A DNA stretch of 64,000 nt from a virus (IMGVR_UViG_3300020183_000007:64001-128000); one strand, 5' to 3'. Positions 47,480-60,451 are shown, numbered from the stretch's first letter. The notes: a model not told the origin generated them from the sequence alone. Translations and numbers: made by a program.

Positions 47480-47510
47480 ATGAGTTTGCCCGTTCTCATC
47501 AAAAACGGGC
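47480..47510 (+). ncRNA. H-type pseudoknot (homologous copy at 60307-60338)
   Basis: ATGAG-TTT-GCCCGTT-CTCAT-CAAA-AACGGGC; compensatory changes in both stems between the two copies. Confidence 0.75.
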
Positions 47511-47514
47511 GCTA

Positions 47515-47589
47515 GGGGATGACAGGCGTCGACACAAGGAAAAGCCAAAGTGCACCTTGTGGAACTGGGTTCGAATCCCAGCATCTCCA
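47515..47589 (+). ncRNA. tmRNA tRNA-like-domain mimic lacking the mRNA-like domain (75 nt)
   Basis: Acceptor GGGGATG/CATCTCC-A with G3:U70, stemless D-loop ending TCGA, helix CACAAGG/CCTTGTG closed by a 15-nt loop, GAA linker, T-arm CTGGG-TTCGAAT-CCCAG. Confidence 0.75.
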
Positions 47590-47713
47590 CTGGGGGACTG
47601 CGTGTATAACGCGTCTTAAACGACACTGTGGTGCGCCCCAAATTCACTCAAATATACACTTATTTTTAATTTCATACAAAAGAGAAAAAACACAGTCAAA
47701 AGGAACAGTCTTT

Positions 47714-47980
47714 ATGAATCAGAACAACATGATCAATTTTGTTACGCTTACGGGCCTTGACGACGAAAGAACTGAAGTTAACCCAGCCAGCATCGTAATG
47801 ATGCAAAGAAGCACCTACGCCCAGTTGCCATGCACTAATGTGTGGCTAATGTTGGGCATCCCATATAAAGTAGTGTGTCGCGAGACACCAGAAGAAATTG
47901 TTCAATTGCAGATGGATGCAATTGGTAAACTCGTGAAAAAGTGCATCAATGTCTTTGAAGAATTAGAAAAGGAGATGTGA
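47714..47980 (+). CDS. FlbD/SwrD-like small protein, paralog 1
   Basis: INFVTLTGLD...EVNPASIVMM...VRETPEEI pattern; true start at ATG 47714. Confidence 0.55.
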   Translation: MNQNNMINFVTLTGLDDERTEVNPASIVMMQRSTYAQLPCTNVWLMLGIPYKVVCRETPEEIVQLQMDAIGKLVKKCINVFEELEKEM

Positions 47981-48147
47981 TGGAATTTCATATTTGCGAA
48001 GCAGTAACATGCCGGCACAAATGCGAAAAAGAAGGGTGTGACAATCACATCCTGTATCACGACGAACCGTACTGTTTCACACACAGTCCGGATTCAGGCT
48101 CATCATTCAAAAACTATGACTCTAGAAAGGGAGGATGGCAATGGTAA
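47980..48147 (+). CDS. Small Cys/His-rich protein (55 aa)
   Basis: AAGGAG RBS; CEKEGC...YCFTH. Confidence 0.55.
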   Translation: MEFHICEAVTCRHKCEKEGCDNHILYHDEPYCFTHSPDSGSSFKNYDSRKGGWQW

Positions 48148-48365
48148 CTGGAATCAAAATGACAACCATCATTACACCCAGGTGCTTCAAGTGCGGTCAA
48201 GAAGGCGAATTACAAATTCCTTCGGAAATCTGGTTCGCCGGCAAGAGAAAACGGGAACAAGGCGCTCTCATACAGGACGCCTGGCCCAGTCTCAATGCCG
48301 AGCAACGCGAGCAGATCATGACAGGTATTCACCCCCAATGTTGGCAACAGATATTCCCAAAATAA
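48135..48365 (+). CDS. Small Zn-binding protein
   Basis: CFKC...HPQC; GGGAGG RBS. Confidence 0.6.
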   Translation: MAMVTGIKMTTIITPRCFKCGQEGELQIPSEIWFAGKRKREQGALIQDAWPSLNAEQREQIMTGIHPQCWQQIFPK

Positions 48366-48606
48366 CATACCTACGCGAGAGGAGTATATGGATACCTTAT
48401 GGTGTCTGTATACTCCTCTCTATGTATATAATAAAAAATATCTCAATAGTCTTTTGGGGGGGACCCGGCGAAGCCGGGGGGGACCCATATGATAAGATAT
48501 AATAAGCGCAGTAGCTATGGCTATTTGTGTAAAAAAAATAACAAATAGCCCTATAGCTGCAAGCGTATTTTTTATTTTATCTCAGAAAAAAATTCTCCAA
48601 AATAGG

Positions 48607-48634
48607 TTGCATTTCTCAACGAAGATGGTATACT
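48607..48634 (+). promoter_or_regulatory. Sigma-A/70-type promoter
   Basis: TTGCAT-N16-TATACT with extended TG. Confidence 0.5.
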
Positions 48635-48685
48635 GAAAGCCCGGAAGGAAAACTCAACACACATCTCAAAGGAGTACACAACAAG

Positions 48686-48901
48686 ATGCCTAAGCAGCAT
48701 CAATCAAAGTCCATGAAGCAAGTTTTCAAAGAACTTGAAAGACTTGGTTTCAATGTAATACATAAAAAGTCAGGATCCTACAGTATCTACCCTCCCTCCA
48801 CGATACAAGGACCCATGTATACAACTCATGGTACGGAGTCTGCACTCCACCCCATGAGACGTGACTTTAAGCGACTGTACAATATCGAGTTGACTGTGTA
48901 G
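48686..48901 (+). CDS. HicA-like (dsRBD-fold) small protein
   Basis: VFKELERLGFNV..KKSG...IYPP...H pattern; AAAGGAG RBS. Confidence 0.45.
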   Translation: MPKQHQSKSMKQVFKELERLGFNVIHKKSGSYSIYPPSTIQGPMYTTHGTESALHPMRRDFKRLYNIELTV

Positions 48902-58133: not shown

Positions 58134-58166
58134 AAAAAATAAATTATAAATTTTAGGGACTAAATT

Positions 58167-58775
58167 ATGGAACAATATCTTAAAAAAATTTCTCCTTCTA
58201 CTCAAAAACTTATTGTTGATCATCTTAATGAAACAGTTTTACCGCATATGATCATTAATCCTCGTGGTTCTGCCAAAGGTCGTCGCCAAATATGGATTGA
58301 AACAGCAACTCCTATTCAGCCTTCTGCCAAGTTCCATGTTGGTTTTCAGGATGATCGTTTATTCAATTATATTAAGAAACTTGCTCCGGAAGGATTTACT
58401 CCCGAAACTATTTTAGTTACTAAAGGCGGAGTTATTCGTCGGCATCGTGACGCCAGTACATTGTCTTGGAAGGGCATGTCTATTAATCTTGGATCTGTTA
58501 CTTGGTATTATGAACGCAATTACCCTAATTATTTTTGGTCACCTGTTGATCACGAAACCATTCCTCCTGGACGGTGGGATTTAACAGGTGGAGAAGTCTT
58601 TATGTTCAACACCAAAAATGCTCATTGGGTTGAAAATGCACACCCTGAGCGTTGGGGCATTAATGTCTGGATGATCTCCGATAATGCTCGTTCAAAATAC
58701 GAGGAATTCTTATCTCAACGAATTGCTGGAACACTTTCTGAAGAACAGCTTAATTTTAAAAATGCAGGATATTAA
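58167..58775 (+). CDS. 2OG-Fe(II) dioxygenase superfamily protein
   Basis: IRRHRDA (HxD), GEVFMFN...HWV, RWGINVW. Confidence 0.7.
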   Translation: MEQYLKKISPSTQKLIVDHLNETVLPHMIINPRGSAKGRRQIWIETATPIQPSAKFHVGFQDDRLFNYIKKLAPEGFTPETILVTKGGVIRRHRDASTLSWKGMSINLGSVTWYYERNYPNYFWSPVDHETIPPGRWDLTGGEVFMFNTKNAHWVENAHPERWGINVWMISDNARSKYEEFLSQRIAGTLSEEQLNFKNAGY

Positions 58776-58803
58776 TATTAGATATTTTTAGAAAGGAGCC
58801 ACT

Positions 58804-59193
58804 TTGTCAAAATTATCTCAAGCTTTTCTAAATTGTCACGTAGTGCAATACGTCAATAATACAAATGATCTTATTGATGTATACAGTTTACAGCCTTTAG
58901 TTGAGATAACTAATCGTTATGGTGGTAAATTTCTTTCTATTCCAAATGGAACTATTTACGGTCATCGTTTGATTTCTCCTGCCACTCATGTAGGAGTTAT
59001 AGATCTTTACGATGAAAACGATCCTATTCTTATATACGGTTTTTCTTTTTCTAATACTCTTCCGAAAACCTATAATGTTGTGTCGGTTGATAAATATTAC
59101 ATTATTTTCAAACGTTATGTAACTAATTTTAATTTAATTATTTCTGAATATAGCAGTTTTTCTCAACAATACCGTTCAGATATTGTCAAATAA
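58804..59193 (+). CDS. Hypothetical protein
   Basis: GAAAGGAG RBS, TTG start. Confidence 0.55.
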   Translation: MSKLSQAFLNCHVVQYVNNTNDLIDVYSLQPLVEITNRYGGKFLSIPNGTIYGHRLISPATHVGVIDLYDENDPILIYGFSFSNTLPKTYNVVSVDKYYIIFKRYVTNFNLIISEYSSFSQQYRSDIVK

Positions 59194-59223
59194 TTTCGTA
59201 ATATTCAAAAAGGAACATTCGTT

Positions 59224-60246
59224 ATGAATAAGCCAATTAAACTAAATATTCAAAAAATTACTCCTACACCTTCGGTCACTAGAAAAACCAGAAAGGTCAA
59301 GGAAATTTCCGTTAATACTACTACTAAGCGTACCGCAAAAACTAAGTCTGTTGAAATTGACTCCGACGAAAATTTTGATACCGAGCTTGATCAATACGCT
59401 AATGTTGATATCACAGCTTATCTTCCTACTAATGCCAGCAAGCTTGATTCAAAGGTTTACCCTCGTGACATCCATATTGATCATTCTTACCAAAGACAAA
59501 CCAATCTTGCTAGGGTTAATCAAATTGTAAGAAATTTTACTCCTAACGCTATTGGCACTGTTTATTTGTCTATGCGTGACGATAGTACTCTTCACATCAT
59601 CGACGGTGCTCATCGACTCCTTGCTTTGCGTAAGCTCGGTCTTGATGATTATCCCATCAATGCCCAGGTTTTCTTTGGCTTGACTCCCAAAGAAGAAGCT
59701 GAGTTGTTTGTCATTATGAACGAAGCTCGTGTAAAGCCTCGTCGTCATGAACTTCATAAAGCTTCTGTTACAGCACAAGATCCTTTAGCAATAGAGATTG
59801 ATAATATTATTACTTCTCTTGGTCTTGTTCTTGTTGACGTTCCATTAGATAATCATGTTCGTGCAGTCAAAACTGTTTACACTCTTTACGCTAAAATGAA
59901 CAAGCGTTCATTTATCAATTTGTTTAAAGTGTTGAAGTCGGCTAACGGTTCTTCTTGTGACTCATTTTGTGTTCAATATCTCGTTGCTGTAGCTGTTATA
60001 CTAATTAAGTATCCTACTGTTGATATTGAACGTTTGATTCATGTTATTTCAAAAATGGGTCATCCTAAAGTTGTCATTGGCAATCTTACAGCTTCTGCCG
60101 GTGGAAAAATTACACTTTTGCAAATGCAGCTTGCTATTGCTAGCGTAATTGTTGACAACTATAATTCTCGCTTACGTAATGCTAGGCTTGATAAAACATA
60201 TATTATTACTTCCAATTACAAAACCTACTTAAATCCTGTTGTTTAA
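59224..60246 (+). CDS. ParB/Srx-fold protein (DUF6551-like)
   Basis: IDHSYQR...IVRNF...IGTV...HIIDGAHRLLAL...EEAELF. Confidence 0.75.
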   Translation: MNKPIKLNIQKITPTPSVTRKTRKVKEISVNTTTKRTAKTKSVEIDSDENFDTELDQYANVDITAYLPTNASKLDSKVYPRDIHIDHSYQRQTNLARVNQIVRNFTPNAIGTVYLSMRDDSTLHIIDGAHRLLALRKLGLDDYPINAQVFFGLTPKEEAELFVIMNEARVKPRRHELHKASVTAQDPLAIEIDNIITSLGLVLVDVPLDNHVRAVKTVYTLYAKMNKRSFINLFKVLKSANGSSCDSFCVQYLVAVAVILIKYPTVDIERLIHVISKMGHPKVVIGNLTASAGGKITLLQMQLAIASVIVDNYNSRLRNARLDKTYIITSNYKTYLNPVV

Positions 60247-60306
60247 TTTAAATTTGCATACACGAACTTTACCTACTCAATCTGGTTGTTAGTTACTAAC
60301 CACACA

Positions 60307-60338
60307 GACGAGTTTGTCCGTTCTCGTCAAAAACGGAC
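60307..60338 (+). ncRNA. H-type pseudoknot, second copy
   Basis: GACGAG-TTT-GTCCGTT-CTCGTC-AAA-AACGGAC. Confidence 0.75.
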
Positions 60339-60347
60339 TTTACCTAC

Positions 60348-60451
60348 GGAGTACGGGATGTCCTAGCCAAAAGTCTAGCAAACACGCTGAGTAATAGAAG
60401 CAATCCGCAGACGCTGTGCTTTAGTAGATGGTTCGACTCCATCTAGCTCCA
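60348..60451 (+). ncRNA. Atypical tRNA-like element (5-bp acceptor + 7-bp T-stem)
   Basis: GGAGT/GCTCC-A plus TAGATGG-TTCGACT-CCATCTA; interior fold uncertain. Confidence 0.4.

Follow-up and report, generated by a model that had tools for sequence, protein, structure and literature searches.

The 64,000-nucleotide (nt) window analyzed here (bases 64001–128000 of the 179,608-base-pair (bp) IMG/VR virus record IMGVR_UViG_3300020183_000007, with an estimated completeness of 85%) carries two copies of a small H-type pseudoknot, each followed by a tRNA-like element. Covariation in both stems marks the pseudoknot as a genuine structured RNA, and it represents a well-defined candidate RNA family of at least 69 distinct sequences for which Rfam holds no family. 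Judging from sequence and placement, we assign a probability of roughly 40% to the reading that it acts as an autonomous, compact boundary or end-cap, which resists nucleases at the 3′ edge of the upstream RNA unit. The element that follows the first copy is a tag-less transfer-messenger RNA (tmRNA) of the type present in mycobacteriophage DS6A.

A pseudoknot family with two covarying stems

Copy 1 (positions 47480–47510, plus strand) reads AUGAG-UUU-GCCCGUU-CUCAU-CAAA-AACGGGC, i.e., stem 1 (S1) AUGAG/CUCAU, loop 1 UUU, stem 2 (S2) GCCCGUU/AACGGGC and loop 3 CAAA. Copy 2 (60307–60338, plus strand) reads (G)ACGAG-UUU-GUCCGUU-CUCGU(C)-AAA-AACGGAC, with S1 (G)ACGAG/CUCGU(C), the same UUU in loop 1, and S2 GUCCGUU/AACGGAC. 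The four differences between them amount to two compensatory pairs, one per stem, and sequence and pattern search thus agree with the initial annotation of this DNA, which had placed H-type pseudoknots with compensatory changes in both stems at these positions. Searched with a 29-nt degenerate pattern, the window yields copies 1 and 2 and nothing else, against 0.00 expected from 100 shuffles, and in the complete 179,608-bp record this pattern again matches these two sites only. The covariance-model matches score 49.8 bits for copy 1 and 46.9 bits for copy 2, and S2 of copy 2 is identical in alignment to that of the relatives L003, L025 and L011. Copy 2 lies within a 71-nt tandem duplication; a repeat search located the remnant at 60257–60276 (plus strand; CATACACGAACTTTACCTAC), which is 85% identical to 60328–60347, a segment comprising the 3′ end of the pseudoknot and the junction. 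A promoter-like reading of 60247–60266 was rejected, since this site is the duplicated remnant of the pseudoknot 3′ half.

Outside the record, the pattern GAGTTTG-NNN-GTTCTC-NN-CAAAAAC-NNN-C matches 34 IMG/VR contigs and five contigs from metagenome-assembled genomes, labeled Ktedonobacteria, Clostridia, Kaiserbacteria, Gammaproteobacteria and Bacilli; all census counts are lower bounds. Every part of this first pattern was relaxed one by one to avoid conservation built in by the search. Relaxation of loop 3 yielded more than 117 loci, corresponding to at least 69 distinct core copies with loop 3 of the form NN-Y-AAA, while relaxation of loop 1 added three matches, none of which pairs, and the UUU of loop 1 is therefore invariant. 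The relaxed-junction pattern gave mostly noise, and the junction pairs show rare compensatory variants (AUU/AAU and GAU/AUC); in a GCA subtype, GCA replaces GUU, resulting in a 5-bp S2 and a 2-nt loop 2, which the main subtype lacks. S1 could be relaxed solely via orthologous loci located 3′ of homologues of the gene upstream of copy 1, encoding a protein of 339 amino acids (aa), and in these loci its core covaries from GAG/CUC to CAG/CUG (L161, L163/L189) or UGG/CCA (L183, L184). The consensus is NN-GAG-UUU-G-NNN-GUU-CUC-NN-Y-AAA-AAC-NNN-C, with S1 of 3–6 bp, UUU in loop 1, S2 of 7 bp (occasionally 8) with U-A junction pairs, and an A-rich loop 3.

In the first alignment, which holds 27 distinct copies, 92.3% of the cells are paired, a level reached in none of 500 shuffles (79.2%). 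S2 is paired in 98.9% of its cells and all three of its variable pairs covary; changes on both sides of a pair occupy 54 cells compared with 19.6 in shuffles (54 being reached in 0 of 500), and the pairing signal is lost when the partner columns are slid. The eight G·U wobbles in S2, combined with zero A·C pairs, identify the strand co-oriented with the genes as the RNA strand under selection.

Rfam, queried with both window copies and the subtype from tRNA arrays at permissive thresholds (E-value up to 10), holds no family for the pseudoknot, and its sole echo, obtained with copy 2 only, is positions 55–84 of the wcaG riboswitch candidate (RF01761), which score 17.7 bits where the threshold is 42 (E-value 0.57). 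BLAST searches of 50,697 cultured or deposited phage records with the window, the group A and group B regions and a 37-nt pseudoknot returned no true copy and no cultured relative, and the top short matches, cr271_1 and LR756508, do not fold into the knot. Neither Rfam 15 nor the searchable literature contains the family, which may hide in the set of over 10,000 unnamed candidates reported in PMC10690425.

Placement was evaluated for the 67 distinct core copies with an upstream open reading frame (ORF) of at least 45 codons on the same strand. The 5′ edge of the knot lies −1 to 19 nt past the stop codon in 51 of the 67, most commonly at 3–7 nt, and the downstream distances are far more variable. 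The upstream genes are unrelated: 15 of 68 encode an AAA ATPase (phrog_1297), six a gp32-like single-stranded DNA-binding protein and one a major head protein, the remainder being unknown. Most genomes contain a single copy; T4-like contigs have one at the end of each of two consecutive genes. In several of the T4-like contigs (L008 at 2390–2420, also L009, L010, L018, L027 and others), a conserved hairpin (CCGCAGGUAGGCAUGGGGUUACAGAUGCCU) lies immediately 5′ of the ribosome-binding site of the gene 3′ of the gp32-like gene and its pseudoknot.

What follows the knot bears on two alternative explanations. A U tract (at least seven U in 10 nt) is present in 12 of 69 copies, and in the L028 group (L007/L028) the knot is followed by U7 and then a perfect (12/12) sigma-70 promoter. 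Taken with the location at gene ends, this is the pattern of an intrinsic terminator hairpin, formed by S2 only, that spread by lineage and whose loop was conserved fortuitously. We consider such an origin very improbable, as the U tract is missing in most copies, both window copies included, and as the covariation of S1 implies that the knot is selected and not the hairpin alone; moreover, copies are found between tRNAs or directly before ribosome-binding sites of co-transcribed genes.

A ribosome-binding site lies 0–15 nt 3′ of the knot in about 20 copies, and in the 12 loci with a U tract, S2 and the tract resemble an expression platform. Both features would suit a cis-regulatory sensor, either a riboswitch of preQ1-I size or a protein operator, that controls downstream read-through or translation. 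The knot is similar to preQ1-I aptamers in size, topology and A-rich 3′ tail, its strongly conserved unpaired nucleotides are typical of aptamers, and a weak likeness (17.7 bits) extends to wcaG RNA of T4-like marine phages, in which positions 55–84 share the skeleton G-UUU...UUC..G-UCAAA. Nonetheless, a sensor is quite unlikely: the family of the downstream gene is inconsistent, tRNAs and promoters are not controllable by a translational switch, and no Rfam riboswitch model, preQ1-I (RF00522) included, matches either subtype at E-values up to 10. The main subtype, lacking loop 2, also lacks the preQ1-I pocket, the wcaG match covers part of the model only and stays well short of its threshold, and the knot is located at gene ends, whereas preQ1-I and wcaG RNAs are leaders of one gene class.

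tRNA-like RNAs 3′ of the pseudoknot

Element 1 (47515–47592, plus strand) begins 4 nt (GCUA) after copy 1 and consists of the tRNA-like domain only. It scores 54.6 bits on the Rfam tmRNA model RF00023 (gathering score 47), and is classed as tag-less because 310 of the 374 model positions are deleted, with a 15-nt loop in their place; compared with RF00023, the mRNA-like domain (tag frame, resume codon and PK1–PK4) is absent. The fold comprises a 7-bp acceptor (GGGGAUG/CAUCUCC) with the alanine identity pair G3:U70, a D-loop analogue, a P2 helix (CACAAGG/CCUUGUG) closed by the 15-nt loop, and a canonical T arm (CUGGG-UUCGAAU-CCCAG) with a GUUCGAAUC-type loop. The discriminator is A47589, and CCA is not encoded. 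No gene for SmpB (PF01668) was found in the 85%-complete phage record, and SmpB would need to come from the host.

Tag-less tmRNAs have precedents in jakobid mitochondria, some plastids and mycobacteriophage DS6A. These RNAs have the architecture of element 1, namely a G3:U70 acceptor, a D-loop analogue, P2 and a T arm, with internal pseudoknots and a tag frame both lacking, and the mini-tmRNA is thus of a kind already reported. In DS6A, the gene was found at about 28478–28559 of JN698994 (L195), where it is unannotated and is missed by Rfam at the gathering threshold. As in the window, it is positioned just past a stop codon, in this case 10 nt past that of gp33 on the same strand, whereas the two RNA sequences are not close. 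PMC11915505, citing Mao et al. 2009, reports that the DS6A mini-tmRNA inhibits host tmRNA in Escherichia coli. Because the pseudoknot is tightly linked to tag-less tmRNAs in one phage lineage, a possible interference of phages with ribosome rescue can be put to the test.

Directly 3′ of the mini-tmRNA, at 47592–47639 (plus strand), lies a small RNA-like element, conserved and about 48 nt long, GGGGACUG-hairpin-UCUUAAACGACACUGUGGUGYGCCC, which occurs once in the genome and has no match in Rfam. It is kept in L165 (2555–2603), L169 (2725–2773), L181 (3050–3098) and L187, and one relative has it directly past an ORF stop.

Element 2 (60348–60451, plus strand) begins 9 nt (UUUACCUAC) after copy 2, and was delineated by its fold and by aligning it with RNAs of the L003 and L161 types. 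It has a canonical T arm (AGAUGG-UUCGACU-CCAUCU, 60426–60444) and A60451 as discriminator; the acceptor has 5 bp only (GGAGU/GCUCC), with A3-U70 and without G3:U70. The Rfam tRNA and tmRNA models give no match at E-values up to 10, and ARAGORN finds nothing in it. From the alignments, element 2 appears to be a reduced, probably decaying relative of the RNAs located 3′ of the pseudoknot in related phages. The tRNA-like elements that had been proposed 4–9 nt past the knots are thereby borne out as genuine, element 1 by RF00023 and both by fold, with spacers of 4 and 9 nt.

In the phage family of the window, structured RNA is located directly 3′ of the knot in every copy examined (the downstream side of L183 was left out), and the gap between them is 4–8 nt in the relatives. 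Three types of RNA are distinguished. The first is the tag-less tmRNA, which L169/L187 share with the window; their version has identical acceptor and T-arm sequence, scores 47.3 bits on RF00023, and lies 4 nt past a diverged pseudoknot. The second is a 130-nt tmRNA-like RNA (L003 461–590, L025 and L011, from the relatives G001/G002). With G3:U70 in its acceptor and with P2 and T arm present, it nonetheless goes undetected by the Rfam tmRNA model and by ARAGORN; an internal GCA-UAA could be a one-codon tag. The third is a highly conserved RNA of about 205 nt (L161 2567–2780, L163 1786–1990, L184 2683–2890 and L189 668–870), which begins with GUUUACCCUAUCUAACUUGGAGAG. It is flanked by the pseudoknot on one side and the 130-nt tmRNA-like gene on the other, and Rfam gave nothing for it at E-values up to 10. 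L161 additionally contains an insertion of about 90 nt between direct repeats (CAATATACCACC).

Phages whose upstream products share about 90% of their protein sequence are wholly different in the DNA right past the knot, which encodes a 77-nt mini-tmRNA, a 130-nt tmRNA-like RNA or a 205-nt RNA. Because of these differences among close relatives, and because copy 2 is part of a 71-nt duplication, the pseudoknot together with its RNA appears to be a module in this lineage that moves or decays as a unit. The same two observations, along with the L161 insertion between direct repeats, could be explained by a junction or recombination site at the DNA level that shuffles small cassettes, with the RNA structure being secondary. 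We regard that explanation as extremely improbable: G·U wobbles without A·C pairs and compensation in both stems indicate that one RNA strand is selected, a recombinase is not regularly found in the vicinity, and cassettes can be shuffled as a side effect where short intergenic sequences are conserved.

Beyond the family, the pairing of knot and RNA gene is found in part of the collection. A tRNA, mini-tmRNA or other RNA gene is positioned 2–9 nt 3′ of the knot in the window's phage family and in L005, L233, L076 and L098, the gap to the tRNA being 8 nt in L005 and 5 nt in L233. In the L098 array, tRNA-Lys (without encoded CCA) is followed 1–2 nt past its discriminator by S1, and tRNA-Val starts 4 nt past the knot. 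On the reverse strand of L233, a sigma-70-like promoter recognized by eye (TTGACT-17-TATAAT) is located about 110 nt before the knot, such that a leader of about 100 nt precedes the knot and tRNA-Glu follows 5 nt on; there is no convincing ORF upstream. The unit of pseudoknot and tRNA-like element proposed in the initial annotation recurs in L003/L025/L011 and in L169/L187, and other phages have the knot 2–8 nt ahead of ordinary tRNAs, but a tRNA-like partner is not the rule. Most copies are without one, and have the knot between a stop codon and a ribosome-binding site, U tract or promoter.

A candidate end-cap and its competitors

The end-cap reading is favored because of the constant fold, the near-fixed loops and junction, the placement at 3′ edges and the independence of host lineage; matches in contigs of five bacterial groups suit a target present in all bacteria. 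Such a knot would be hard to pass for exonucleases and helicases, and the upstream RNA would end in, or be shielded by, a tightly stacked structure with probable triplex reinforcement. In telomerase and luteoviral pseudoknots, a U-rich loop 1, A-U junction pairs and an A-rich loop 3 give rise to triplexes that raise mechanical stability. By analogy, the U3 loop 1, U-A junction, A-rich loop 3 and missing loop 2 point to a putative triplex-reinforced type of pseudoknot: the U-rich loop 1 would face the A-U pairs of the S2 junction, the A-rich loop 3 would run along S1, and the very small size is likewise similar. In contrast to the telomerase and luteovirus pseudoknots, which act in catalysis and −1 frameshifting, respectively, the present knots lie past stop codons at a spacing of −1 to 19 nt and without a slippery site. 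A role as stimulator of −1 frameshifting or readthrough was rejected on account of this variable gap, where such a stimulator would keep a fixed 5–9 nt, and the lack of a slippery heptamer at copy 1; the only frame open through copy 1 (47333–47515, +1 relative to the 339-aa gene) ends about 14 codons past the stop of that gene.

According to the end-cap reading, the 3′ end would be set by whatever adjoins the knot, i.e., termination at a U tract, a cut by RNase P 2–9 nt past the knot where a tRNA or mini-tmRNA supplies the substrate, or decay from the downstream cistron. In the window, mRNA of the 339-aa gene would be co-transcribed with the tag-less mini-tmRNA, RNase P would free the latter at G47515, and the mRNA would end at about 47514 in the pseudoknot. 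RNase P cuts tmRNA precursors at G1 of the tmRNA-type domain, and since this cleavage is established, an upstream RNA ending in the pseudoknot may reasonably be inferred for the window. Copy 2 would be a duplicated, partly decayed version of a unit of the copy 1 type. A different scheme, in which RNase P would cut loop 1 of the knot as a mimic of a 12-bp minihelix, was rejected because there is no RCCA past the knots; pseudoknot substrates of RNase P that need a 3′ RCCA have precedent (PMC12710915).

The initial annotation had compared this arrangement with MALAT1 and mascRNA. In vertebrates, the 3′ triple helices of MALAT1 and MEN-beta precede the tRNA-like partners mascRNA and menRNA, respectively. 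The likeness consists of a stabilizing tertiary structure immediately 5′ of a tRNA-like element, a predicted RNase P cut that would make the upstream 3′ end, and U-rich and A-rich strands available for triples. However, in MALAT1 a bipartite U-rich internal loop clamps a 3′-terminal A tract, while by sequence and covariation the present motif is an H-type pseudoknot of 31 nt whose A-rich loop is internal, not a MALAT1-type triple helix. There is no sequence relation either (16.7 bits on the mascRNA-menRNA model, gathering score 42.5), and most pseudoknot copies have no tRNA-like partner. The RNase P or MALAT1-like scheme is plausible as a particular case but does not hold in general. An H-type pseudoknot directly 5′ of a tRNA mimic and past the last ORF is also present at the 3′ ends of tymovirus and tobamovirus RNAs. 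There, the mimic is an aminoacylatable part of a plant RNA virus genome and is not released from it; it serves translation and replication, and a further pseudoknot forms its acceptor arm. The present partner is a domain of the tmRNA type with an ordinary acceptor stem, encoded by a DNA phage. As structured elements right past a cistron that may stop 3′ exonucleases, the knots resemble REP elements, terminator hairpins and T7 RNase III sites, by which parts of an operon can differ in stability. Those elements, in contrast to one pseudoknot shared among unrelated phages, are plain hairpins and have no sequence conserved across hosts.

Several observations weigh against the end-cap reading. Neither window copy is followed by a U tract (GCUAGGGG after copy 1, UUUACCUAC after copy 2), and no terminator-like site was found at either of them. 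Several loci have a ribosome-binding site 0–3 nt past the knot, which leaves no space for a cut. In DS6A, the pseudoknot is absent 5′ of the mini-tmRNA gene, and the knot is therefore not required for such a gene. The GCA subtype is confined to tRNA arrays in all five contigs listed, and between tRNAs there is no mRNA to protect. Finally, the near-invariance of loop and junction across hosts exceeds what a passive roadblock needs and is more typical of specific recognition.

The last two points lead to the principal competing explanation, in which the knot itself would be the product, a small RNA (about 35 nt) binding a universal bacterial factor. It would be freed by tRNA-processing enzymes or exposed in 3′ untranslated regions, and would act as decoy, inhibitor or recruiter towards an exonuclease, the ribosome, RNase P or S1, with the proximity to stop codons reflecting tight genome packing. 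In its favor, loop and junction sequences are near-invariant in phages of five unrelated bacterial groups, the slot in the L098 array is gene-like, the GCA subtype occurs in arrays in the five listed contigs, and the L233 knot occupies a leader before tRNA-Glu with no convincing ORF 5′ of it. We nevertheless find this explanation unlikely, because the 5′ edge hugs stop codons (51 of 67) more than it would if only transcription mattered and because a single copy in most genomes is a low dose for a decoy. To our knowledge, no enzyme would free the 5′ side of the knot past a stop codon.

A broader formulation joins two branches and is, in our assessment, doubtful: either a triplex-locked end-cap followed by a tRNA or mini-tmRNA is the prokaryotic-virus counterpart of MALAT1-mascRNA, or the knot is excised as an RNA of about 35 nt that blocks a universal host factor. 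In the first branch, host RNase P would free a host-interfering small RNA and leave an exonuclease-proof end on the phage mRNA. In the second, excision would be from tRNA arrays, and the target would be a universally conserved factor of RNA decay or translation.

Two further candidates were set aside. A repeat of the type III antitoxin kind was rejected, as the copies are single and not tandem (no search for toxin genes nearby was made), and mimicry of the 16S rRNA 5′ end, with which the motif would share GAGUUUG, was dropped for lack of further support.

If the end-cap reading is correct, a single tiny RNA structure, fixed in sequence, delimits RNA units in phages whose hosts differ widely, and a natural, portable 31-nt element for RNA stability or insulation would be at hand. 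No triplex-type end-cap would have been described before it in bacterial viruses, and phage mRNAs and small RNAs (tRNAs and tag-less tmRNAs) would be matured from one transcript by host RNase P. Structured RNAs at gene ends or between cistrons and viral pairs of pseudoknot and tRNA-like element are known kinds, whereas the end-cap and RNase P mechanism would, if confirmed, be the first for bacterial viruses.

Genes and minor elements around the window copies

As had been noted previously, each window copy is located 3′ of a long ORF. The first is a conserved phage ORF of 339 aa (46453–47472, plus strand), whose stop codon lies 7 nt before copy 1. PHROG and Pfam gave no match for its product, and none of at least 221 homologues has a name. 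The AlphaFold model has a predicted local distance difference test score of 81, its sole BFVD match is an uncharacterized phage protein, and the PDB holds no fold match. An assignment as major capsid protein was rejected on the basis of this confident model, which has no HK97 capsid match in PDB or BFVD. The second, an ORF of 340 aa (59224–60246, plus strand), is ParB-like/DUF6551 (phrog_1033, 5e-14; PF20188, 2.6e-14), and copy 2 begins 61 nt past its stop. The possibility that the two ORFs are paralogues was rejected, as they are unrelated on comparison.

Upstream of the 339-aa gene, at 45273–45340 (plus strand), is a Pistol self-cleaving ribozyme scoring 48 bits (gathering score 34.5), and the relative L161 has a Pistol ribozyme at the equivalent place (397–464; 65.3 bits). 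Further along the window, the ORF at 56707–57633 (plus strand) matches the phage 'transposase' family phrog_4285 (3.5e-39). The motif TT..TTCATACAAA occurs on the plus strand at 47667–47680, 51092–51105, 53915–53928 and 56597–56610; its distance to the start codon is 23–34 nt at three of these sites and about 100 nt at 56597. Its count is modestly above chance (26 compared with 15 expected, allowing two mismatches), it is also found 3′ of the RNA modules in the relatives L003, L170, L173 and L190, and a role as a promoter or leader motif specific to the phage is probable.

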